Shown here: positions 5,298 to 45,710 of the stretch, piece by piece
Layout: every line of letters starts with the position of its first letter
How positions within the stretch are numbered: the first letter of the stretch is position 1
Source: Candidatus Palauibacter ramosifaciens
GTDB taxonomy: Bacteria; Gemmatimonadota; Gemmatimonadetes; Palauibacterales; Palauibacteraceae
NCBI GenBank assembly: GCA_009845855.1
Contig: VXYT01000040.1
Location: 24,367-88,366 of the forward strand
DNA: 64,000 bases
Direction: 5' to 3'
Notes under the pieces: model-generated
Databases searched by the model: none
Told to the model about the DNA's origin: nothing
What the model saw: the letters and a program-made list of their open reading frames with translations, nothing else
Made by a program: the position numbers and the translations under genes

Positions 5298-5867
5298 ATG
5301 CCGCATATCGACACGGTAGCTCCCGAGGAAGCAGAGGGGCTCGTCGCCCGCGAGTACGAGAAGGCCGTCCGCCGCGCGGGGCGCGTCTTCAACGTGATCT
5401 GCATCCAGAGTCTGAACCCGCCCGTCATGCGTGCCTCGATCCGGCTCTACGAGGCGCTGATGCTGGCGCCCGGACCGCTGGGGAGGGACGTGCGGGAGAT
5501 GCTCGCGACCGTGACCTCGCGCGAACTCGACTGCTTCTACTGAACGGAGGCGCACGGAGAGGATCTCCGTCAGGCGACCGGGGACGATGACCTGGCCCGC
5601 GCGATCCGGATCGACTATCGGACGGCGGGGCTCGACGCGAAGACGCGCCGGCTGATGGACTATGCGGTGGCGATCACGCGCGAGCCGACCTCCACGGCTC
5701 GGCCGGACATCGACGGGCTGCGGGAGGTCGGCTGGACCGACGCGCAGATCCTGACCGCGACGGAGGTCGTCGGCTTCTTCAACTACTACGTGCGCATGGT
5801 CGAGGCGCTCGGTGTAGAACCGGAGCCTGAGATGGAGCGGGACCCGGCCTTGTGGCCGGATCCCTGA
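5298..5867 (+). CDS. carboxymuconolactone decarboxylase (CMD/AhpD-like) family peroxidase-related selenoprotein; in-frame TGA (5541-5543) read as Sec
   Basis: ORFs 5298-5543 and 5655-5867 are in the same frame. Together they reconstitute one ~189-aa CMD-family protein. The TGA falls at the second Cys of the family C-x-x-C-x3-H motif (here C-F-Y-U-T-E-A-H). AGGAGG RBS 8 nt upstream of the ATG; hairpin 11 nt after the TGA. Confidence 0.7.
5554..5570 (+). promoter_or_regulatory. candidate bacterial SECIS hairpin for the CMD-family selenoprotein
   Basis: ACGGAGA/TCTCCGT 7-bp stem (or 5-bp stem with GAGGAUC loop), beginning 11 nt downstream of the in-frame UGA. Confidence 0.45.
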
Positions 5868-5888
5868 TCCCGGCCGCCCAGGCTGCTG

Positions 5889-8126
5889 CTAGCCTCCGGA
5901 CCGGCCTCGCGCGCGGGCGCCGCCGGTCGACCGCGAACTGCCGCCGGACCGGCGGACGGTGCCGCCGGACCGGGACCCGCCGCCGGATCGGCGGACCGCC
6001 CCGCCGGACCGGGACGCGCCGCCCGAACGGCTGACAGTGCCGCTCGACCTCGATGGCCCGGGGGGCCGCGCCGCCGGTCGCGATGACCGTGGGGCGGATG
6101 GCCGGGTCACGGGTCTCGTGGTGGACGGCGGGCGGCGAACGTCCGGCCGGGACGGCCTCGCCGCGGTGGGTCGCACGGGGGGCCTCGCCGGCACGGAGCG
6201 CACCGCCGGCCTCGCGGGATTCGACCTTGCCGTCGGCCGCGCCGTCGCGCCGCCCGTCCTCCGAACGGGCGGCGACTCCCGCGCCGTCCGCGGACGGACG
6301 ATCCGACGAACGCCCTCGTCGCCGGTCCGCGGGGCTGCGCGCTGTACGCCGCCGGAACCCGTCCGCGTCGCGGGTCGCACGGCCGGTCGTCTCGCGTCGT
6401 CGGGCACACCCCGCTCGCGCGCCGTGGGACGCCGGATCACCGGGCGAGCGCCGGTCCCCGATGCGGGCGGCGTTGCGCGCTGCACGCCGGATCGCTGCGT
6501 CGCCCGCTGCACACCGGGCCGCGCCGTCCTCGGCACGCCGGACCGCTCCGGCCGCAACGTACCGGCCTCCGGCGACCGTCTGGTCACCCGGACCGCCGGT
6601 GAGCCGGCCGTCCGCGAGGCACCGCTCGGCGCCCCGGCGGTCGCGTCGCGCGGGCGGGCCGACCGGCCATCGCGCCCTCGCAGCACGACGCGTTCGACCT
6701 CCCGCGGCAAGCCCGCGCCGCGATCGATGAAGCCGTCCGCATCGACCGCCGTTCTCCCGTCCCGCGAGACCGCGCGCCGCAGGCTCGCCAGCGTCTGCGC
6801 GGGTCGGCGCCGCGCCTCGCGCCCGAGCAGGCGGGAGTCCGTCAGCAGCACGCCGCGCTCGACCGCCTTCCGCCCGCGACCGAAGTCCGAACCGCCGACC
6901 GAGTAGAAGTGCTGTCGCCGGTGTCCGAGCCGGCCGTGCGGCAGGAATGTCCAGTGCCGATAGCGCCCGAAGCCGCCCCCGATGTGTCCGTAGACCCCGA
7001 AGTGGAAGCCCCAGCTGCTCCCGTAGTGGTTTCGGTAGTGGCGCCAGTAGTATCCCGAGGGAATCCAGCCCGCGTAGCTCGGGCCCCAGTACCAGTAGAC
7101 GTGCGCGACGGCGAAACGCCGGCCCGGGAACCAGACCCACCCCCAGCCGGGATCGAGGTCCCAGTACCCGTAGTGGTAGGGCACCCATCCCCATGGTTCG
7201 TACGAGACCCAGAACATTCCGCTGGGCGTGTGTCGCCAGCGCCCGTGCCGGTACGGAGCCCAGCCCGTTGAGACTCGCGGACGCCAGGCGACCCCCGCAT
7301 CGACGTGTACCCACGATCCGTGCCCGCGGAGCGAAGAGGCGGCGTAGTGGAGGTCCGGATCCAAATGGGCGGTGTACTCGCCGGACGCGTAGTCGCCGAC
7401 CCCCTGGCCCCACGCCTCCAGGCGATCGAGACCGGGGGCCGCCGCGAAGCGGAGCCGGTCCCCTCGCGCACCCTCGACGAAGAGGCTCTCCCCGCGGCGG
7501 ACCTCGGCGAGTTCCATCTCCGTCGTGACTTCCGCCACCCCCTCGCGCACGACGACCTCGCTCCGGCGCTCGTCGTCGACGACGATCAGGAAGGAACCGG
7601 CTCCCCGCGGCCGGATCGTCGCGTTAGGCGTGATGATGGAAGGCCACTCGGCCCCCGGTTGGTTCGGGGCCACCACGAGCTGCAGCGACCCGCGCGCGAT
7701 TTCGAGGATGGAGGCGGGATCGCTCGCATCCGCTGAGTTGGCGAGCGCGCGGAAGAGAAGCTCCGTCCGATCCCCGATCCGGACGAGGTTCCCGTCGGCG
7801 AGCGAAATCTCGATGCGGGATTCGCCGGACACGAAGATCCGGTCGCCGACGAGGACGGGCTCGTTCACCGCGAGCTGGATGCGATCCCGGGTGTCCCCCT
7901 GAATGAGCGTCGCTGACCCGTCCAGCGCCCGGAGGTATCCGTAGCTGCCGTCGATCCCGCTTTGCGCGACCGCGGCGTCATAATCGATCGGTGTCTCCGC
8001 CTCCTGGGCGGAGACCGGGGGCGCGACGAACGAGGTGCCCCACGCCACCCCGACCGCCCACACTCGCCGCCGGCCCCGCAACCACCGGGGCGCTCCGGAG
8101 TTTCCTCTCGCCTTTGCGAACCGCAT
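5889..8126 (-). CDS. FecR-domain secreted protein with W/Y/G-rich segment and basic RSGG/PR-rich C-terminal tail
   Basis: signal peptide (VAWGTSFVAPPVSAQ); FecR-like beta domain (aa 60-200); aromatic-rich aa 280-410; low-complexity tail with RSGG repeats; C-terminal extent uncertain. Confidence 0.5.
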   Translation of the reverse strand: MRFAKARGNSGAPRWLRGRRRVWAVGVAWGTSFVAPPVSAQEAETPIDYDAAVAQSGIDGSYGYLRALDGSATLIQGDTRDRIQLAVNEPVLVGDRIFVSGESRIEISLADGNLVRIGDRTELLFRALANSADASDPASILEIARGSLQLVVAPNQPGAEWPSIITPNATIRPRGAGSFLIVVDDERRSEVVVREGVAEVTTEMELAEVRRGESLFVEGARGDRLRFAAAPGLDRLEAWGQGVGDYASGEYTAHLDPDLHYAASSLRGHGSWVHVDAGVAWRPRVSTGWAPYRHGRWRHTPSGMFWVSYEPWGWVPYHYGYWDLDPGWGWVWFPGRRFAVAHVYWYWGPSYAGWIPSGYYWRHYRNHYGSSWGFHFGVYGHIGGGFGRYRHWTFLPHGRLGHRRQHFYSVGGSDFGRGRKAVERGVLLTDSRLLGREARRRPAQTLASLRRAVSRDGRTAVDADGFIDRGAGLPREVERVVLRGRDGRSARPRDATAGAPSGASRTAGSPAVRVTRRSPEAGTLRPERSGVPRTARPGVQRATQRSGVQRATPPASGTGARPVIRRPTARERGVPDDARRPAVRPATRTGSGGVQRAAPRTGDEGVRRIVRPRTARESPPVRRTGGATARPTARSNPARPAVRSVPARPPVRPTAARPSRPDVRRPPSTTRPVTRPSAPRSSRPAARPPGPSRSSGTVSRSGGASRSGGAVRRSGGGSRSGGTVRRSGGSSRSTGGARARGRSGG
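5930..6040 (-). repeat. tandem 12-20 nt GC-rich repeats (GCCGCCGGACCGG units) encoding the RSGG repeat tail
   Basis: visible direct repetition of ccgccggaccgg(g/c)... units on the + strand. Confidence 0.5.
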
Positions 8127-17861: not shown

Positions 17862-18008
17862 TCACGGCACGCCGAAGTCGAGCAGACGGGTGACCATATA
17901 GAGGAGGAGGATGAGTCCGGCCGTATAGACGATCACCGACACGTACAGGGCGCGCCAGCTGCGGAAGGGTCCGATCCGGCCTTCCGTCTCGTCCCGTCGC
18001 TCCGTCAC
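17862..18008 (-). CDS. possible 48-aa single-TM small protein (SSS-associated small subunit?)
   Basis: GTG start overlaps the upstream stop (GTGA); C-terminal TM LYVSVIVYTAGLILLLYMV; sits immediately upstream of the symporter. Confidence 0.3.
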   Translation of the reverse strand: MTERRDETEGRIGPFRSWRALYVSVIVYTAGLILLLYMVTRLLDFGVP

Positions 18009-20695
18009 GGAGCGGCGATCTCGCGCCAGCGGCTCCCATCGAGAGAGAGCAGGTTGGCCCATAGACGAAAGGCGCCCGGCACGCCGGCGCGCAACTGCCG
18101 GAAGAAGGAGAGCGACGTGTGAATGTAGAGTCCGCGACCCACCGGGGCGGCGAGCAGGCCGCCGCGACTCGGCGGTTCTCCCGTGTCGGCCATCTCCAGT
18201 GGGGCCTGGTATCTCTCGTCCCACGCGTCGGGGAAGTACAGTCCGCGCTCCTGAACCCAGCCTTCGAAATCTCCCGGGCCGAGGCGGTTGGGCTCCATGA
18301 GCACCGGCGCAGTCGGGTCGGCGAGTGTAACGGGCGCGTCCTCCTCGGTGACGCGGGGCGCGGGGCGGCCGATCGCGATCGGGTACGGTGCGTACGCCCC
18401 CTGGTTGAACTCGTAGCGGTTGTACTGGACGACGACCGTGCCGCCGCGCTCCGCCCACGCGAGCAGCTCCGCGTTGGCCGCGATCAAGTCCTCGCGCACC
18501 TCGTAGGCCCGGATCCCGAGTACGATCGTGTCGAACCGGTCGAGCCTCCCGGCTTCCCAGTCTCCCGGTTCGATGAGTTCGACGTCGAGCCCGAGCTGTC
18601 GGATGGCTTCGGGTCCGTCGTCGCCGGAACCCATCACGTATCCGATGCGCCGGTTCGCGACCCGAACGGGGAAGCGCACGATCCGCACCGCCGCGTCGCC
18701 GGTCAGGAGCCGAGGCTCGATGTGCGGATAGTCGATCATGGTCGCGTGCGTGGCGGGCACCGCGGTTCCGGCGATCCGGATCCGCGGCCGCGCGAAGAAC
18801 TCCCCCTCCGTCTCTCCCGCCGCCGGCTCGACCGTGAAGCTGACGGTCTCAACCGCTCCTTCTCCCGCGAGTTCGAACGCCGCCGTCTCGGGTGCCGCGC
18901 GCCATCCGGGCGGCAGGTCGAGCCCGATCTCTCCGACCGTGGAGTCCCGGGCGAAACTCGAGACCCGGAAGGCGATGACGCGTGAACCCGGGCGGCCGCC
19001 GGGCCAGATCAGCGTAGGCGCCGTCGCCGTGACGGATACGCGCGGCGCCACCTGCAGCGGCCGCCAGCTTTCTCCCGTAACGCCATCCACGGCCCGATGG
19101 CGGACCGGATCGGCGACCTCGATGTCGAACCGTTCGCCCGCCGCCGACACGATCGCGGCCACGCGGCCGAGAAGGGGCGGAGGCCGGAACGGCAGTGCGC
19201 GAAGGTCTAGCGCCGCGGGCCATTGGTACAGGTCGCCGTCCCGCGGATGTTCAAGGAACCACGGGGAGGCCGGCGGCGCTTCCGCGGGCGCCGTGACGGC
19301 ATGGCGCCACAGCCCGAGTTGGCCCGGCTCGATTCGGGCCCGGGCCGACGGGTCGAGCACGACATCCGGCTGGCGGAAGAAACGGGCGAAAGGACCCGCA
19401 TCGTCGGGCTCTGTCTCGACGTCCGGGCCAATACCCTCCACCGACCAGCCGGGCGGCACCTCGATGACCGGCGGGTCGAGCTCCACCGTGGCCCCGGCGC
19501 CGCTCGAGATGCGCGCCTCGACGAGCACGGTCTGTCCCGGGACCAGGACGTCGTCCCGCGCCCGCAGTTCGATTCGCACCCCGGCCACCGCGAGGATCGC
19601 CCGCATCAGCAGTCGCGCGCGGCGGTCGAGTTCGCGCTGCAGCTCGCTCTCACCCGCGGGGCGAGCGGCGGTGCGGAGCCGCTCCAGTCGGCGAAGCGCC
19701 TCGGCGAGGAAGGGCAGGGCGGGCTCCGGCCCCGTCGCATTGAGCGAGCCGCGGGCGCGCCCGATCGCCGCCCGGTACGAACGGAGATCCGCCCGCGCGG
19801 TCTCGCCGAGATCTCCGGCCAGGCTGGCCAGCGTCGTGTCGACCCCGGCCAGCAGCGGATCCGTCGGCGAGCCGCCGACCCGCGAGGAAACGAGCGAGAG
19901 CCGGGTGGCCCGGGGACCGAGCGGCAGGGCCGTGCCGAAATCCTGCGAGCGGTGCTGGCTGCGGCTGTCCATCGCGACCTGGTGGTGCGTGAGGCCGAGC
20001 AGGGGATCGAGGGCGCCCGTCTCGATGTCGATCGCGGTGGCGCCCAGCTCGAAGAGGGGCCGGCGGTACAGTTTCATCGGCGCCCACGGCGCCGCGCCCG
20101 CCGCGACCTGGTCCGGGAAGCGCGTCGCGTCTCCGGCGGCGTCGAAGGCCTCTCGCGTGAGCAGACCGGATACCTGGTGGTGCCCGTGCCCATCCCGCTC
20201 CGTTCCGCTCCACATCGAGATGAGCACATGGGGGCGGAAGCGCCGGATGGTCCAAACCAGATCGGAGAGAACGCGCTCGCGCGGCCACTTCGAGAAGGTC
20301 TCGTCCGCCGTCTTCGAGTAGCCGAAGTCGAACGCGCGGCCAAAGAACTGCTGCGCCCCGTCGACCGTACGTGCGGCGAGAAGTTCGCCCGAGCGGATGA
20401 TGCCGAGTCCCTCGCCCAGCTCGGTGCCGATGAGGTTCTGGCCTCCCTCGCCTCGGGTGAACGAGAAGTAGGCGGCCTCGACACCCCATCCGCGCGCGAG
20501 CGTGGTCAACAGGGCGGTATCCTCGTCGTCCGGGTGCGCCGCGACGACGAGGACCCTCTTCACCCCATCGATCTGCCGGAGGATGAGTCCCGCTTCGATC
20601 GCGCCCGGGAGGCGCGACCCCTGCGCGTGCGCGAATGCCGGGAGCAGGCAAGACGCCAGGACAGCGATTGCGACGGTCATGGATCGAGGTTGCAT
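18005..20695 (-). CDS. secreted PIG-L/LmbE-family deacetylase with ThuA-like C-terminal domain
   Basis: signal peptide; AHPDDE motif (VVAAHPDDEDTALLT); C-terminal class-I amidotransferase-like region. Confidence 0.7.
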   Translation of the reverse strand: MQPRSMTVAIAVLASCLLPAFAHAQGSRLPGAIEAGLILRQIDGVKRVLVVAAHPDDEDTALLTTLARGWGVEAAYFSFTRGEGGQNLIGTELGEGLGIIRSGELLAARTVDGAQQFFGRAFDFGYSKTADETFSKWPRERVLSDLVWTIRRFRPHVLISMWSGTERDGHGHHQVSGLLTREAFDAAGDATRFPDQVAAGAAPWAPMKLYRRPLFELGATAIDIETGALDPLLGLTHHQVAMDSRSQHRSQDFGTALPLGPRATRLSLVSSRVGGSPTDPLLAGVDTTLASLAGDLGETARADLRSYRAAIGRARGSLNATGPEPALPFLAEALRRLERLRTAARPAGESELQRELDRRARLLMRAILAVAGVRIELRARDDVLVPGQTVLVEARISSGAGATVELDPPVIEVPPGWSVEGIGPDVETEPDDAGPFARFFRQPDVVLDPSARARIEPGQLGLWRHAVTAPAEAPPASPWFLEHPRDGDLYQWPAALDLRALPFRPPPLLGRVAAIVSAAGERFDIEVADPVRHRAVDGVTGESWRPLQVAPRVSVTATAPTLIWPGGRPGSRVIAFRVSSFARDSTVGEIGLDLPPGWRAAPETAAFELAGEGAVETVSFTVEPAAGETEGEFFARPRIRIAGTAVPATHATMIDYPHIEPRLLTGDAAVRIVRFPVRVANRRIGYVMGSGDDGPEAIRQLGLDVELIEPGDWEAGRLDRFDTIVLGIRAYEVREDLIAANAELLAWAERGGTVVVQYNRYEFNQGAYAPYPIAIGRPAPRVTEEDAPVTLADPTAPVLMEPNRLGPGDFEGWVQERGLYFPDAWDERYQAPLEMADTGEPPSRGGLLAAPVGRGLYIHTSLSFFRQLRAGVPGAFRLWANLLSLDGSRWREIAAP

Positions 20696-20739
20696 GGGCG
20701 GGAAGCTATGCCCGCGCGGGGGCCGCAGAAAGCGGGGGT

Positions 20740-20850
20740 CCGTACATCTATCGTCGGTCCTACAGTTGACGCGCAGTGCGCCGCGGGAGATTATGGTTCA
20801 TTCCACGCCGGAAACACGCGCCGGGCACATCTATCGTCCGGCATACCGCT
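20740..20850 (+). promoter_or_regulatory. promoter region flanked by 12-bp perfect direct repeats ACATCTATCGTC (20744-20755, 20827-20838)
   Basis: TTGACG (20766-71) - 17 nt - GATTAT (20789-94); repeats extend to 18/22 identities; lower GC than the flanks. Confidence 0.45.
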
Positions 20851-20867
20851 CCGCAGGAGGAGGCATA

Positions 20868-21545
20868 ATGAACAAGAACGTGATGGAATTCATAGAACTT
20901 GAGTTGACAAAGGACCCCGGGGTCTCGAACGCGACGCTCTTCGAAGGGGCGAAGCTCATAGACAAGACCATCGGGAAGCTGAATCCGAGGCAGTTCCACG
21001 CGAAGTACCCGCTGCAGGTCAAGCGCCGTCTGGCGGGGCACAGCTCGGGGCGCGCCGTTCGGGCGCCGGTCAGGCCGAAAGCGGCGCAGCGACCGCGTGC
21101 CCGGAAGGGAGATGCGGATGCGGTGCTGGCGTACGTGAAGCGCGTGCTCAAGAGAAACCCCGAGGTCACGAACGCGGAGTTGTTTTCGGGCGCCTGTGAG
21201 ATCGACGCTTCGGTCGCCGAGCTGTCGCCCCGACAGTTCCATGCAAAGTACCCGCTGCAGATCAAGCGTCGTCTGGCCGCCGCGGAGGCTCCGCGACGCG
21301 CCGCTCCGGCTCCGCGCCGCGCCGCGCCGGTGGTGGCGGAGCCCGCGCCGGCCGCAGCACCGCCGTCCGCGCCCGCGGTCGCCGCGGCCCCGGCGATGGG
21401 AGGCGGCGACGCGGCCGCCGTCCGCGGGCTGCTTCTCAGTCTGGTGAGAGAGCTGGCCAAGGCCGAGACGCAGGCCGAGACGATCGAGGTCATGGCGCGA
21501 CTGGACGGCTATGTGAACGACGTCATGCAGGCGGCTCGAAGCTGA
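20868..21545 (+). CDS. hypothetical protein with tandemly duplicated ~42-aa domain, Ala/Pro-rich linker and helical C-terminus
   Basis: AGGAGGAGG RBS; repeats: ...NATLFEGAKLIDKTIGKLNPRQFHAKYPLQVKRRLA / ...NAELFSGACEIDASVAELSPRQFHAKYPLQIKRRLA. Confidence 0.6.
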   Translation: MNKNVMEFIELELTKDPGVSNATLFEGAKLIDKTIGKLNPRQFHAKYPLQVKRRLAGHSSGRAVRAPVRPKAAQRPRARKGDADAVLAYVKRVLKRNPEVTNAELFSGACEIDASVAELSPRQFHAKYPLQIKRRLAAAEAPRRAAPAPRRAAPVVAEPAPAAAPPSAPAVAAAPAMGGGDAAAVRGLLLSLVRELAKAETQAETIEVMARLDGYVNDVMQAARS

Positions 21546-21616
21546 GCCCCGGCGACCGGCCGGCGCCGCGCCGGCGGTCCCCTTCGCCGCAGTCCCCGGG
21601 AGCCCGGCGTTCGCGC

Positions 21617-22456
21617 GTCGGGCTCTCGTGCGTTCTCGCCGGCGCCGTCGCCGTGGCGGTGGCGATTCCGGCGCAGGGGCAACTGAAGCGCGACGCCCTC
21701 GTGCAGCCCGTGGGAGGCGCTCGGTCCGGCGAGGCTCTGCTCGGCGTCGGCGTCTCGCGTACGGAGAACGCAGACTTCCCGCTCGCCGGGCTGGGAGGGG
21801 ACTTGACCGCCTTTCCCGACCTGCACGCCGCCTGGGCGATCGGGCCGCGCGTCGTGTTCGAACTGAAGGGGGCGGCGCGGAAGAGGCTCTCCATCGAGAG
21901 GCGCGATTCGGTCTCTTCCATCGATCTCGACCCTTCCCTCGCCGATGGCGCCTCCCGCGACGTGGGCGACTTCGAACTCGCTGTGTCGTTCGCGCCCATC
22001 GGCGGAGCCACGGGCTTCTCGGCGGGCGGACATCTGGGCGTCAAGCTCCCGAACTCCGACGAAATTCGGGGGATCGGACTCAACACGACGGACATCACGA
22101 TCGCGGCCCTCTTCTCATGGGGCTCGGCTCGCTGGCGCGCCACGGGCTGGCTCGGGGTCGGCATCCTGGAAGTCCCGATCGAGCCTTTCGAGCAGAACGA
22201 CGCGTTCGCCTACGCGTTCGAGGCGCTGTGGGACGCGGCCCCCGGCTGGCGGCTCTCCGTCGGGGCCTGCGGGCGGTCGAGCACAAGAAGCGTGTCGCCG
22301 CCGGGCACGGGCGACCTCGGCGAACTCCGGGCCACCGTGGAGTGGAGACGGGGACCGGTGTCCGTCGATGGCGGGTTCGGCCACGGAACCACCGAAATGA
22401 GCGGCGACTGGAATGTGCGCGCAGGCGTGGCCTGGACGCTTGCCGGGAATCGGTAG
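21617..22456 (+). CDS. secreted hypothetical protein (possible beta-barrel); non-ATG start
   Basis: signal-like VGLSCVLAGAVAVAVAIPAQGQ; alternating amphipathic strands; Gly/aromatic-rich. Confidence 0.45.
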   Translation, partial: VGLSCVLAGAVAVAVAIPAQGQLKRDALVQPVGGARSGEALLGVGVSRTENADFPLAGLGGDLTAFPDLHAAWAIGPRVVFELKGAARKRLSIERRDSVSSIDLDPSLADGASRDVGDFELAVSFAPIGGATGFSAGGHLGVKLPNSDEIRGIGLNTTDITIAALFSWGSARWRATGWLGVGILEVPIEPFEQNDAFAYAFEALWDAAPGWRLSVGACGRSSTRSVSPPGTGDLGELRATVEWRRGPVSVDGGFGHGTTEMSGDWNVRAGVAWTLAGNR

Positions 22457-23702: not shown

Positions 23703-25934
23703 CCCGGGGCCCGCCGGTCGTCGGAGCGCGGCGCCATCGCGGCGGCCGCTGCGGCGCTGGGCGCCGCCGGGGCGCTGGGCGGAGCGCTCTGGCTGTGGTC
23801 GGGTTCGGCACCCCCGGGAATGTCGCCGTCAGAGGAGGCCTCTCCCTGCGCGCCCGGCGCGGAACAGGAGAGCGCGGCGAGTCCCGACCTGTACTGCATG
23901 GCCCTGTTCCCGACGCCCCGCGTCCCGGATGCGACCGGTACGGTGGAGTTGCGGCGCCCCCCGGGGCCATTCCCCATGGGGGTGACGCCGGACGGGCGGC
24001 TCCTCTACGACGCGGTGATCTCGACGGACCTTCCGGCCCCGTCCACGCTCGGTCCGTACGACCGCTACGTCGCCTGGGCGTCGACCCAGGTGCTTTGGCC
24101 CATCGAGCGGCTCGGGGAAGTCCCGGCGCGCGGCCGCGTCGAGGCGGGGCAGGTCGCGTTCAACAAGTTCCTCATCCTGGTCACGGCGGAATCCGGGGCG
24201 GAATCCGGGGCGGAACCCGGAGCGGCCGAGGAAGCGGGCGCGGAGCCGGCGGGTCCCTATGTGTTGCGGGCCCAATCGCCTTCCAGCCGCATGCAGCCGG
24301 CCGACTTCCTCGAGTTCGCGCTCGGCGCCTCGCGGACCCCTCCCGGCGGGATGGCGATGGACGACGCGTGGGGCGGCGTGCCGATGCCCGAAGGGGTCAT
24401 GATGCTCCCGTCGCTCATGGAGCTTCGGCCGGATGTGCAACCCTGGTTGCCGGGAGACGGATGGGAGGGTGAGATCGTCGACGCCCGCCCACGCGAGGTG
24501 TTCGAACTCGCCGACGGCGATTCGCTCGCCCTGGACGCCGTCTACGTGCGCCGCCGCATCGGGAGCCGCGAAATCCTCGGCTACGGCTTCAACGGACAGA
24601 TCCCCGGGCCCCTCCTCTGGGTTCCCGAGGACGCGACGGTCACCATCGACTTTACGAACCGGATCGACTGGCCGACCGCGATCCACTGGCACGGACTGCG
24701 GCTCGACAACCGCTTCGACGGCGTCCCGGGCCTGACGCAGGATGTCGTGGCCCCCGGCGAGAGCTTCCGCTACACGGTGTATTTCCCCGACCCCGGCCTC
24801 TACTGGTATCACCCGCACCACCGCGAGGACGTCCAGCAGGACCTGGGGCTGGCCGGCAACCTCATGGTCCGGTCTGAAGATCCCGATTACTTCAGCTCCG
24901 TCCACCGCGAAGAGGTCGTGATGCTCGACGACCTGCTCGTGGGCGAACACGGGGTCGTCCCCTTCGGTCTCGAGCGCGCCACGCACGCGCTCATGGGTCG
25001 CTTCGGCAACACCATGCTCGTGAACGGGGAGCCCGGCTACGCGCTGGACGTGGAGCGCGGTTCGGTCGTCCGTTTCCATTTCACCAACGCCTCCAATACG
25101 CGGACGTTCAACGTCTCCTTCGGCGGAGCGCCCATGAAGCTTGTGGGCGCCGACGTGGGCAACTTCGAGCGGGAGGAATGGATCGAGAGCGTGATCATCG
25201 CGCCTGCGGAGCGCTACATCGTGCACGTCGCCTTCCCCGAGAGCGGGAGCTACCCCTTCCTGAACCGGGTGCAGGGGATCGACCACATCGGCGGCAGCTT
25301 CTTCCCGGAGCAGGACACGCTGGGCGTCGTTCGCGTCGGCGCGGCCGACGCGACGCCGGATCTGAGCGCGGCCTTCGAGGCGCTGCGGGAGAACCGGCGC
25401 GCGCGCGACGAGATCGCGCCGTATCGCCCCCTCTTCGACCGGCCGGTGGACCTCACGCTGGAACTCGACATGTCGACGCGCGGCCTCCCGCTCGTCGTCG
25501 AGCGTCTCATGCAGGTGGACTCGGCGTACTTTCACCCGGTCGAGTGGTCGGGAACGATGCCGATGATGAACCTGATCTCGACGCCTGAAAACGTGTCGTG
25601 GACGCTGCGCGAACCCTCCACGGGGCTCGAGAACGAGGCGATTCGCTGGAACTTCCGCGTGGGCGACGTGGTCAAGCTGAGGATCCGGAGCCGCCGCGAG
25701 ACGCTGCACCAGATGCAGCATCCGATCCACATCCACGGCCAGCGCTTCCTCGTCCTCGCCACGAACGGTGTGGCGCACGACAACCTCGCCTGGAAGGACA
25801 TGGTGGTCGTCCCCGTGGGCGGTTCGGTCGACCTCCTGCTCGAACTCTCGAACCCCGGCCGCTGGATGCTGCACTGCCACATCGCCGAGCACCTCGAGGC
25901 GGGCATGCAGATGGTGTTCACGGTGGAACCGTAA
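23703..25934 (+). CDS. multicopper oxidase (Tat-like leader; start codon unresolved between 23556 and 23820)
   Basis: copper-site motifs HWHG, WYHPHH, HPIHIHG, HCHIAEH; leader RRSSERGAIAAAAAALGAAGALGGALWLW has no in-frame ATG. Confidence 0.8.
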   Translation, partial: PGARRSSERGAIAAAAAALGAAGALGGALWLWSGSAPPGMSPSEEASPCAPGAEQESAASPDLYCMALFPTPRVPDATGTVELRRPPGPFPMGVTPDGRLLYDAVISTDLPAPSTLGPYDRYVAWASTQVLWPIERLGEVPARGRVEAGQVAFNKFLILVTAESGAESGAEPGAAEEAGAEPAGPYVLRAQSPSSRMQPADFLEFALGASRTPPGGMAMDDAWGGVPMPEGVMMLPSLMELRPDVQPWLPGDGWEGEIVDARPREVFELADGDSLALDAVYVRRRIGSREILGYGFNGQIPGPLLWVPEDATVTIDFTNRIDWPTAIHWHGLRLDNRFDGVPGLTQDVVAPGESFRYTVYFPDPGLYWYHPHHREDVQQDLGLAGNLMVRSEDPDYFSSVHREEVVMLDDLLVGEHGVVPFGLERATHALMGRFGNTMLVNGEPGYALDVERGSVVRFHFTNASNTRTFNVSFGGAPMKLVGADVGNFEREEWIESVIIAPAERYIVHVAFPESGSYPFLNRVQGIDHIGGSFFPEQDTLGVVRVGAADATPDLSAAFEALRENRRARDEIAPYRPLFDRPVDLTLELDMSTRGLPLVVERLMQVDSAYFHPVEWSGTMPMMNLISTPENVSWTLREPSTGLENEAIRWNFRVGDVVKLRIRSRRETLHQMQHPIHIHGQRFLVLATNGVAHDNLAWKDMVVVPVGGSVDLLLELSNPGRWMLHCHIAEHLEAGMQMVFTVEP
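24186..24221 (+). repeat. 3 tandem copies of a 12-nt unit (GCGGAATCCGGG) encoding AESG repeats in the MCO linker
   Basis: direct tandem repetition seen in sequence. Confidence 0.6.
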
Positions 25935-45088: not shown

Positions 45089-45532
45089 TCAGCCTCGCGG
45101 GGCCGCGGGCTCGTCGTCGTCGCACACCGCGCACGCGTTCGCGTCGGCCTGGCAGATACGGGCACCCTGCAGAAGAGCACCCGCGAGGACGAGGCTGCCG
45201 GCGGTCGACGTCGCAGTCTCGGGCAGCGGCTCGAGCCAGCCGGCGAGCGAGGTAGCCCAGAACGCGGCCCCTCCCGCAAAGGCAAGGATCACCGCCGCGT
45301 TCCTGCCGGCTGGGCCCAGGAAGAGCATGACTGCCCCGAGAACGACGGTCCCGACCAGAAACGCTCGTTCCACGCCTTCGGAGAGGGCGAGCGCGGGCGC
45401 CACCGCGACGAGAATCGGTGTCATTGCACAATGCACGCCACACCAGGCCGCGGCGCACCCCGCCAGGCGCGATCCGGAGACCAGATACCCGCCGGGCGGG
45501 ATGGCGGCAAAAGTTGCAATAGGGGTCTTCAT
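45089..45532 (-). CDS. membrane protein with paired-cysteine motifs
   Basis: 4 hydrophobic segments; GCAAAWCGVHC and CQADANACAVC. Confidence 0.45.
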   Translation of the reverse strand: MKTPIATFAAIPPGGYLVSGSRLAGCAAAWCGVHCAMTPILVAVAPALALSEGVERAFLVGTVVLGAVMLFLGPAGRNAAVILAFAGGAAFWATSLAGWLEPLPETATSTAGSLVLAGALLQGARICQADANACAVCDDDEPAAPRG

Positions 45533-45710
45533 GATTCCGAGTCAACGCCGGGAGCGAGAGTCAACGCCGGGAGCGAAGAGAGCAGAGCGTGAACGCCGAG
45601 GGCGTAATGATAATCGATTCTCACTTCCGTGTCACGAAAATCACGCGCGGCCTCGGGAGAACCACGCGCGGTCCCGGGATGATCCGGGCAGGCGCGAGAC
45701 GGCGGCGCGG

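Follow-up and report, generated by a model that had tools for sequence, protein, structure and literature searches.

Bacterial nucleoid-associated proteins of the H-NS/MvaT/Lsr2/Rok type are built from an oligomerization domain, a flexible linker and a small DNA-binding domain, and their autoregulation has been described. The coexistence of a chromosomal copy with copies carried by mobile elements is typical of nucleoid-associated proteins (H-NS/Sfh, MvaT/Pmr, HU). Histone-H1-like proteins (Chlamydia Hc1/Hc2, Pseudomonas AlgP) and the eukaryotic linker histone H1 associate a small helical domain with a disordered basic region rich in Lys, Ala, Pro and Arg. The gene studied here lies at 20868–21545, on the plus strand, of a 64,000-nucleotide (nt) stretch of DNA from Candidatus Palauibacter ramosifaciens, phylum Gemmatimonadota (GCA_009845855.1, contig VXYT01000040.1, positions 24,367 to 88,366), hereafter named the window. 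Its product may be an architectural DNA-binding protein, nucleoid-associated or linker-histone-like, whose synthesis is under feedback control mediated by boxes flanking its promoter. This reading is tentative, with a probability of roughly 45%. By analogy, the functional kind would be a known one that follows the logic of H-NS/Lsr2/MvaT and histone H1, carried by a sequence family that appears to be new and has no homology match to these proteins.

The nucleoid-protein reading is favored because basic modules, a Lys/Arg-rich linker and a separate hairpin suited to pairing chains are combined in one protein, and because its gene has strong and conserved expression signals. It is further favored because one syntenic core copy per genome is accompanied by diverged copies on integrase-linked repeated elements, and because the number of modules in the family varies from one to three, as expected of an additive binding unit.

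The coding sequence (ATG at 20868, TGA at 21545) specifies a protein of 225 residues that is both small (24.0 kDa) and basic (isoelectric point, pI, of 10.3), as expected of the nucleoid-associated class. The same protein sequence is found in hypothetical protein F4164_09585 from a Gemmatimonadales metagenome-assembled genome (GCA_009838765.1). From the amino to the carboxyl terminus it comprises module 1 (residues 3–58; 20874–21041), which has five predicted short helices and terminates in RQFHAKYPLQVKRRLA; a basic disordered linker 1 (residues 59–82; 21042–21113); module 2 (residues 83–138; 21114–21281); a disordered Ala/Pro-rich linker 2 (residues 139–179; 21282–21404) whose length and sequence vary in homologs; and a conserved acidic helical hairpin (residues 180–225; 21405–21542), with helices at 182–198 and 202–224. 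All these segments are read from the plus strand. Linker 1 (SSGRAVRAPVRPKAAQRPRARKGD) is 24 residues long, of which 8 are Lys/Arg, and has a pI of 12, to be compared with 9.4–9.8 for the modules and 4.7 for the C-terminal domain. The two modules are identical at 29 of 56 positions (52%; residues 3–58 versus 83–138). Their relatedness is also visible in the DNA, where 20977–21034 matches 21220–21277 (83% over 58 nt) and 20914–33 matches 21157–76 (90%), both pairs being spaced by 243 nt, or 81 codons. An earlier note, made from the sequence alone, had described two consecutive copies of a 42-residue module followed by a Pro/Ala-rich linker. The duplication and the Ala/Pro-rich linker stand, but the module is ~52–56 residues long and the copies, which are 81 residues apart, are separated by the basic linker instead of being contiguous.

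In the full-length AlphaFold2 model, built on a 36-sequence alignment, both modules are predicted as five-helix domains (residues 3–57 and 81–140; predicted local distance difference test, pLDDT, about 77–90) and the C-terminal hairpin is modeled with confidence (residues 182–224; pLDDT 83–94). The stretches 59–80 and 141–179 are disordered in the model, with pLDDT <50 for linker 1. Module 2 modeled alone, from 59 diverse homologs, is a compact five-helix domain with a pLDDT of 93.5. The strongest residue conservation is found in a basic helix pair, RQFHAKYPLQVKRR. The hairpin is a candidate dimerization domain. If so, the protein would share with H-NS/MvaT/Lsr2/Rok the putative logic of oligomerization domain, linker and DNA-binding domain, but in the reversed order, with the putative DNA-binding modules at the amino terminus and the putative dimerization hairpin at the carboxyl terminus. 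It differs further from that group in the absence of sequence or fold similarity and in that its module can be duplicated or triplicated. Its likeness to histone-H1-like proteins extends to its small size and high pI. The differences are that the window module lacks a wing and consists of five short helices, that the basic region of the family is internal and followed by an acidic hairpin, and that the tail of the window protein is Ala/Pro-rich rather than Lys-rich.

Comparison with known folds gives insignificant ranks only. The top Foldseek neighbors of the module in the PDB are the helix-turn-helix domains of Lrp/AsnC, FapR, BlaI and POU/homeodomain proteins (E ≥2.9, TM score ≤0.57), and those of the full model are the bipartite paired-type SETMAR, CENP-B and Pax (E ≥0.49). 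The amino-terminal pattern V-L-x-Y-V-x-x-x-L-x-x-N-P-x-V-T-N-A-E-L of the window protein is similar to the way in which many winged helix-turn-helix domains begin. Nevertheless, the basic helix pair signature has no counterpart in helix-turn-helix families and the PDB profile search was empty. The resemblance of the predicted fold to helix-turn-helix domains is a lead rather than a classification.

No family with an assigned function was recovered by sequence either. A Pfam scan of the window protein at E up to 10 yielded only a spurious DeaD_C match (E 0.64), scans of the protein and its relatives against NCBIfam, PHROGs and PADLOC had no match, and nothing relevant came from PDB searches with the single sequence or with the module profile. 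Foldseek detected no significant neighbor in the PDB (full model and module) or among the BFVD viral structures (full model), and tblastn against phages had no match. The nucleoid protein families H-NS (PF00816), Lsr2 (PF11774) and HU-IHF (PF00216) are without Pfam match in the window protein, and so are the histone-H1-like families Hc1 (PF07432), HC2 (PF07382) and Linker_histone (PF00538). The HC2 score of one distant relative, P0264, is 20.4 bits, below the 40-bit cutoff and due to its tail only. Phasins with histone-like tails (PhaF, PhaM) also associate a helical domain with an Ala/Pro/Lys-rich low-complexity region, but their domain order and motifs are different, Phasin (PF05597) and Phasin_2 (PF09361) do not match the window protein in Pfam, and the neighborhood holds no genes for polyhydroxyalkanoate synthesis. 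The earlier note had raised phasins and histone-like proteins as the alternative identity of the module, and the Pfam scan supports neither.

The protein nonetheless has a large number of relatives. A full-length search found 241 homologs, all hypothetical; where a source is named, it is a metagenome-assembled genome of Gemmatimonadales or Candidatus Palauibacter. A module-only profile run against 1.84 billion representative proteins retrieved 459 clusters, counted at 50% identity, at E ≤1e-3 and 207 at E ≤1e-10. Most of its matches are proteins of 120–205 residues with one module at residues ~6–60. A full-length single-module profile gave 918 clusters at 90% identity, whose names are solely Palauibacter, Palauibacterales and Gemmatimonadales. 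A separate profile search of a word-indexed database with the short module alignment reached short proteins only. Among 148 new representatives of the module-only search (P0121–P0268; 150 listed), 98 have one module and the C-terminal domain, nine have two modules with this domain and two have three with it. The linker that precedes the C-terminal domain, in the 109 representatives with both a module and that domain, has a median length of 33 residues with 32% Lys/Arg and 3% Asp/Glu, and some relatives (P0200, P0214, P0221) feature AAKK tracts like those of histone H1. The usual form of the family is a module followed by a Lys/Arg-rich linker and the C-terminal domain. No Pfam domain or name is attached to the listed representatives, and the literature searched on Palauibacter, and on Gemmatimonadota together with nucleoid-associated proteins, describes the family nowhere. 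On these comparisons the family is large, unannotated, encountered almost exclusively in Gemmatimonadota, and undescribed in the libraries and literature searched. The three-module proteins P0121 (376 residues) and P0123 (334 residues) illustrate a further variation, since the inter-module linkers of P0121 are acidic and Ala/Glu-rich, not basic. A tblastn search against plasmids located a single-module homolog on plasmid 1 (1.1 Mb) of a cultured bacterium, Gemmatirosa kalamazoonensis KBS708. This homolog (L089; ~166 residues, NZ_CP007129.1 about 1,064,080–1,064,580) stands in a PLSDB record without annotation, and TGTGGCAC direct repeats are found upstream of it in place of CATCTAT boxes.

The region upstream of the window gene carries its expression signals. 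The sigma-70-type promoter TTGACG-17-GATTAT (20766–20794, plus strand) is the sole sigma-70-like match in 20400–21900, where 0.0 are expected. It is bracketed by two perfect copies of ACATCTATCGTC on the plus strand. Box 1 (20744–20755) is placed 10 nt upstream of the −35 hexamer, and box 2 (20827–20838) is in the 5′ untranslated region (UTR), starting 41 nt before the ATG. If transcription starts ~7 nt past the −10 element, box 1 would span ~−57 to −46 and box 2 ~+26 to +37 (about −52 and +31). The near-perfect Shine–Dalgarno sequence AGGAGGAGG (20855–20863, plus strand), which reads GAGGAGG in close orthologs, is found 4 nt before the ATG. The GC content is 65.1% in the intergenic region and 60.4% in 20740–20840, compared to 69.7% in the whole window. 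The description of these elements in the earlier note, namely the promoter, the 12-bp repeats with an extended match of 18/22, the strong ribosome binding site and the lower upstream GC content, is confirmed in every particular.

The 12-mer is found at these two sites only within the 64 kb, even when one mismatch is allowed (0.21 expected), and is not the frequently recurring motif that the earlier note had envisaged as an objection. An exact direct repeat of at least 12 nt arises in 0.3% of dinucleotide shuffles of the 172-nt intergenic region and is also present in 17/743 (2.3%) real 172-nt segments of the 64-kb sequence. Taken alone, the direct repeat is modestly unusual and suggestive. It goes beyond chance because it is conserved in orthologs. 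In 19 aligned orthologous upstream regions the extended −35 element ACAGTTGAC does not vary at all, and most of the regions retain GATyATGG, the −10 element. The promoter spacer and the more distal upstream DNA, by contrast, differ between the regions. Both boxes persist in the alignment, box 1 as (G)TACATCTAT directly 5′ of the −35 element (core (G)TAC(A/G)TCTAT) and box 2 as GCATCTATCGTC in most orthologs; ~14 orthologs keep boxes at both positions with a spacing of 81–84 nt. The density of [CT][AG]TCTAT is 7.4/kb in the 150 nt upstream of orthologs versus 0.076/kb per strand elsewhere in the loci, a ~100-fold enrichment that overstates the independent support because the close orthologs sharing the boxes are phylogenetically related. 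Among distant single-module orthologs, L081 (about 5890–5985) has three C(G/A)TCTAT boxes within 60 nt (CCGTCTATAG, ACGTCTATCA and ACATCTATGC) and L086 (about 5900–5985) has two TCTATCA boxes upstream. Conservation supports that the boxes are functional sites flanking a genuine promoter and, most simply, they would be operators for feedback control. The earlier note had proposed a dedicated regulator that binds on both sides of the promoter. The conservation of both boxes agrees with binding at the two sites, but the binding factor could also be the protein itself.

The 83 bp that separate the boxes amount to about 7.9 helical turns and, being close to eight, are expected to place them on the same face of the DNA. 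In an alternative reading the protein is a sequence-specific transcription factor and most likely an autorepressor, each helix-turn-helix-like module reading one C(A/G)TCTAT half-site and the C-terminal domain dimerizing, so that the 83 bp are looped and the protein shuts its own promoter and perhaps that of the divergent PIG-L-domain gene. The two homologous modules would mirror the two direct-repeat boxes, and the near-constant spacing of the boxes in ~14 orthologs and the three boxes of the distant ortholog L081 favor this reading. The weak fold neighbors, which are helix-turn-helix domains of transcription factors, and the position of box 1 in the intergenic region common to the PIG-L-domain gene also fit. 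However, one module and a long Lys/Arg-rich tail are what most of the family has, a build more usual in binders of low specificity, and the single-module orthologs L075–L080, L083 and L088 are without the motif. No regulon is visible, since the box motif is confined to this site in the 64 kb, and linker 1 is too short to reach across 83 bp unless the DNA loops. A sequence-specific autorepressor is considered unlikely.

Box 2 is part of a weak predicted 5′-UTR hairpin (20820–20842, plus strand; stem GCCGGGC/GUCCGGC) whose loop ACAUCUAUC spans it. The same hairpin is predicted for most orthologs, and the integrase-linked paralogs presented below have a conserved hairpin of their own at the equivalent UTR position (TCCGCG-yCCAyCGGG-CGCGGA). 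In a second alternative the protein would not bind DNA; it would instead be a factor that binds RNA or associates with ribosomes, or a disordered scaffold with helical, protein-binding modules. Box 2 would then act as an RNA loop in translation or mRNA stability, and box 1 would be an unrelated AT-rich, UP-like element. Box 1 does lie where UP elements are found and is AT-rich for a genome of 70% GC, and the Pfam and Foldseek searches found no DNA-binding homology. Against this, the stability of the hairpin is not distinguishable from that of shuffled sequence (z-scores of −1.9 to +1.3 across orthologs), a single compensatory change backs its stem, and a scan of 20600–21000 with Rfam covariance models at E up to 1 had no match. 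A 7–12-mer shared by both sites in many orthologs is hard to reconcile with two unrelated functions, and the tight link between paralogs and integrase points to a role at the DNA level. A function without DNA binding is viewed as unlikely.

The genomic setting of the window gene is that of a conserved core gene. The divergent neighbor on the minus strand codes for an 896-residue PIG-L-domain protein (18005–20695), and its pairing with the family gene is kept in all core orthologs, single-module ones included. In orthologs of at least 54% identity, the minus strand carries the genes for FTHFS, an SSF transporter and the PIG-L-domain protein, and the plus strand carries the family gene, a gene for a hypothetical protein of 238–297 residues, and those for a cupin, a short-chain dehydrogenase and a multicopper oxidase. 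One syntenic chromosomal ortholog adjoining the PIG-L-domain gene is found per genome. Single-module orthologs of ~135 residues from distant Gemmatimonadota occupy the same neighborhood. The window gene is regarded as an old core gene because these distant orthologs share the locus and have PIG-L-domain neighbors 54–60% identical to that of the window. Since they have a single module, the module duplication arose within the Palauibacter/Longimicrobiales lineage. A module tree built to date the duplication gave no clean order of identities, because module 1 has evolved rapidly in the mobile-element copies. The module number in the family is 1, 2 or 3. In Candidatus Palauibacter irciniicola (L070, 6001–6414) a lone hybrid module associates the N-terminal half of module 1 with the C-terminal half of module 2, the result either of recombination between the internal repeats or of assembly collapse. 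Two more C[AG]TCTAT heptamers are found in the window at 17931 and 18067 (minus strand), 136 nt apart, at the 3′ end of the PIG-L-domain gene and shortly past it.

A second clade, ~50% identical, always has two modules. It is multi-copy, and a single genome holds as many as six of its members. In 32 loci the paralog is followed, in the same orientation and after a median of 388 nt, by an open reading frame for a tyrosine integrase of ~400 residues; in L007 and L009 it is called as 386 residues with the Pfam domain Phage_integrase. Examples are L007 6001–8237, L009 8001–10161, L078 3630–8292 and L064 3287–8729, besides about 30 further loci. The units span 4.7–10 kb and are repeated at 94–100% identity within and between Longimicrobiales/Palauibacter genomes, and Type ISP/MmeI restriction-modification, toxin-antitoxin, insertion sequence (IS), DUF433/DUF5615 and PemK genes are among those around them. 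A distinct promoter, GACATTGAC-N17-GAGTATTC, is conserved upstream of the paralogs. The sequence CCATCGGCGG was considered as a second box upstream of this promoter and rejected, as it is present in a subset only and resembles the GC-rich terminator of the upstream gene. Short contigs with paralogs (L072, L073, L087) show ~964–1285x coverage, 2.5–3 times that of the core contig L023 (392x), which shares its bin with L073 and its assembly (RHO1) with L072 and L087. This raised coverage agrees with multi-copy elements.

Excisionases, usually encoded beside int, are small and basic, have a helix-turn-helix or winged-helix fold, and recognize direct repeats. The paralogs are likewise small, basic, helical and encoded directly upstream of a tyrosine integrase gene, and short direct DNA repeats accompany the window gene. 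The family could be viewed as primarily accessory to mobile elements, acting as an excisionase-like directionality factor or as an architectural cofactor of the tyrosine recombinase, with the window gene as a domesticated copy. The 32 same-strand integrase neighbors in repeated units support this view. Chromosomal synteny across distant Gemmatimonadota, at a locus with no integrase near the window gene, argues against it. In addition, the mobile copies all have the derived two-module form, which suggests that they were captured from the chromosome. Neither Pfam nor PHROGs gives an Xis/excisionase match for the window protein, neither tRNA genes nor att-type features adjoin the units in 12 loci, and, compared to the Xis proteins of lambda and Tn916, the window protein is much larger and has an extra conserved C-terminal domain. 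Of the explanations considered, a primary role as a mobile-element accessory is the least probable, and a distinctly improbable one.

The architectural DNA-binding role that is favored here would operate as follows. The ancestral form has an N-terminal module of ~55 residues with the motif L..RQFHA(K/R)YPLQVKRR, a disordered linker rich in Lys, Arg, Ala and Pro, and an acidic hairpin of ~45 residues. The basic modules and the basic linker would touch DNA, and the C-terminal hairpin would pair or oligomerize the chains. A dimer of the window protein would thereby offer four DNA-contacting modules able to bend or bridge DNA. The strong conserved sigma-70-type promoter and the Shine–Dalgarno sequence would drive abundant expression, with feedback probably exerted through the two C(A/G)TCTAT boxes by the protein itself or by a dedicated regulator, in line with the autoregulation of H-NS-type proteins. 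In this scheme we infer DNA binding, oligomerization, abundance and the identity of the box-binding factor. The role in nucleic acid or nucleoid association that the earlier note had put forward is consistent with the small helical module and its weak helix-turn-helix fold neighbors, the basic character, the family-wide Lys/Arg-rich linker and the division of the family into a chromosomal ortholog and mobile-element paralogs, but is unproven.

Several observations weigh against this scheme. The searches of Pfam, NCBIfam and the PDB and the Foldseek comparisons yielded no significant similarity, in sequence or in fold, to a DNA-binding family. The second linker of the window protein is Ala/Pro-rich and nearly neutral, compared to the strongly basic linker of single-module relatives. 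The codon usage of the family gene is not clearly of the highly expressed type and does not discriminate as a proxy for expression. The enrichment of boxes upstream of orthologs is a phylogenetic footprint, not independent replication. Finally, the box motif is missing upstream of the mobile-element paralogs as well as of the distant orthologs L075–L080, L083 and L088, from which it follows that autoregulation via this motif is not family-wide.

A broader extension of the nucleoid-protein reading can be formulated. The family would be a Gemmatimonadota-wide chromatin protein with a fold unrelated to known nucleoid proteins, its modules varying from one to three by internal duplication and recombination and its synthesis controlled by the protein itself via the flanking C(A/G)TCTAT operators. 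It would have been captured repeatedly by multi-copy integrase elements in sponge symbionts, as an element-encoded nucleoid protein or a recombination cofactor. This complete scenario is possible though doubtful. Gemmatimonadota is a widespread and rarely cultured phylum, and the literature searched gives no description of its chromatin proteins. If correct, a phylum-specific architectural DNA-binding family without detectable fold relatives would be a new type among the few bacterial nucleoid proteins, and hundreds of "hypothetical" proteins would gain names. If integrase-linked multi-copy elements of sponge symbionts did capture it, the notion that mobile elements bring along nucleoid proteins of their own would be broadened. 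The hypothesis is directly testable because the cultured G. kalamazoonensis KBS708 encodes a single-module homolog.

The window gene is followed on the same strand by a 14-bp GC-rich hairpin (21597–21628), 52 nt past the stop codon, with a U-poor tail. Lacking a canonical U-tract, it is a non-canonical terminator candidate that may end transcription before the downstream gene (21653–22456, plus strand). The latter codes for a conserved 267-residue hypothetical protein without Pfam match and helps to define the syntenic core locus. Exact direct repeats of 15–19 nt within 172-nt segments were also recorded in the background survey of the window, at about 5849–6100, 24081–24340 and 45409–45670.

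The organization of the paralog units shows additional features. Their placement in invertible restriction-modification shufflons is unsupported, as long inverted repeats were found in L029 only and not in L007, L039, L055 or L064. Those of L029 (2378–3747 and 11259–12628) are perfect over 1370 nt, likely IS copies, and flank the paralog locus in a composite-transposon-like manner. Some paralog contigs, few in number, are assigned to Bryobacterales or Gammaproteobacteria bins, probably in error. A gene for a protein of ~325–456 residues, ending in ...DHWRYFR and without Pfam or PADLOC match, is located directly upstream of the paralog in many units (L055 4857–5834; L008 6480–7463; L029 4549–5919) and could represent a third gene of the core of the element.

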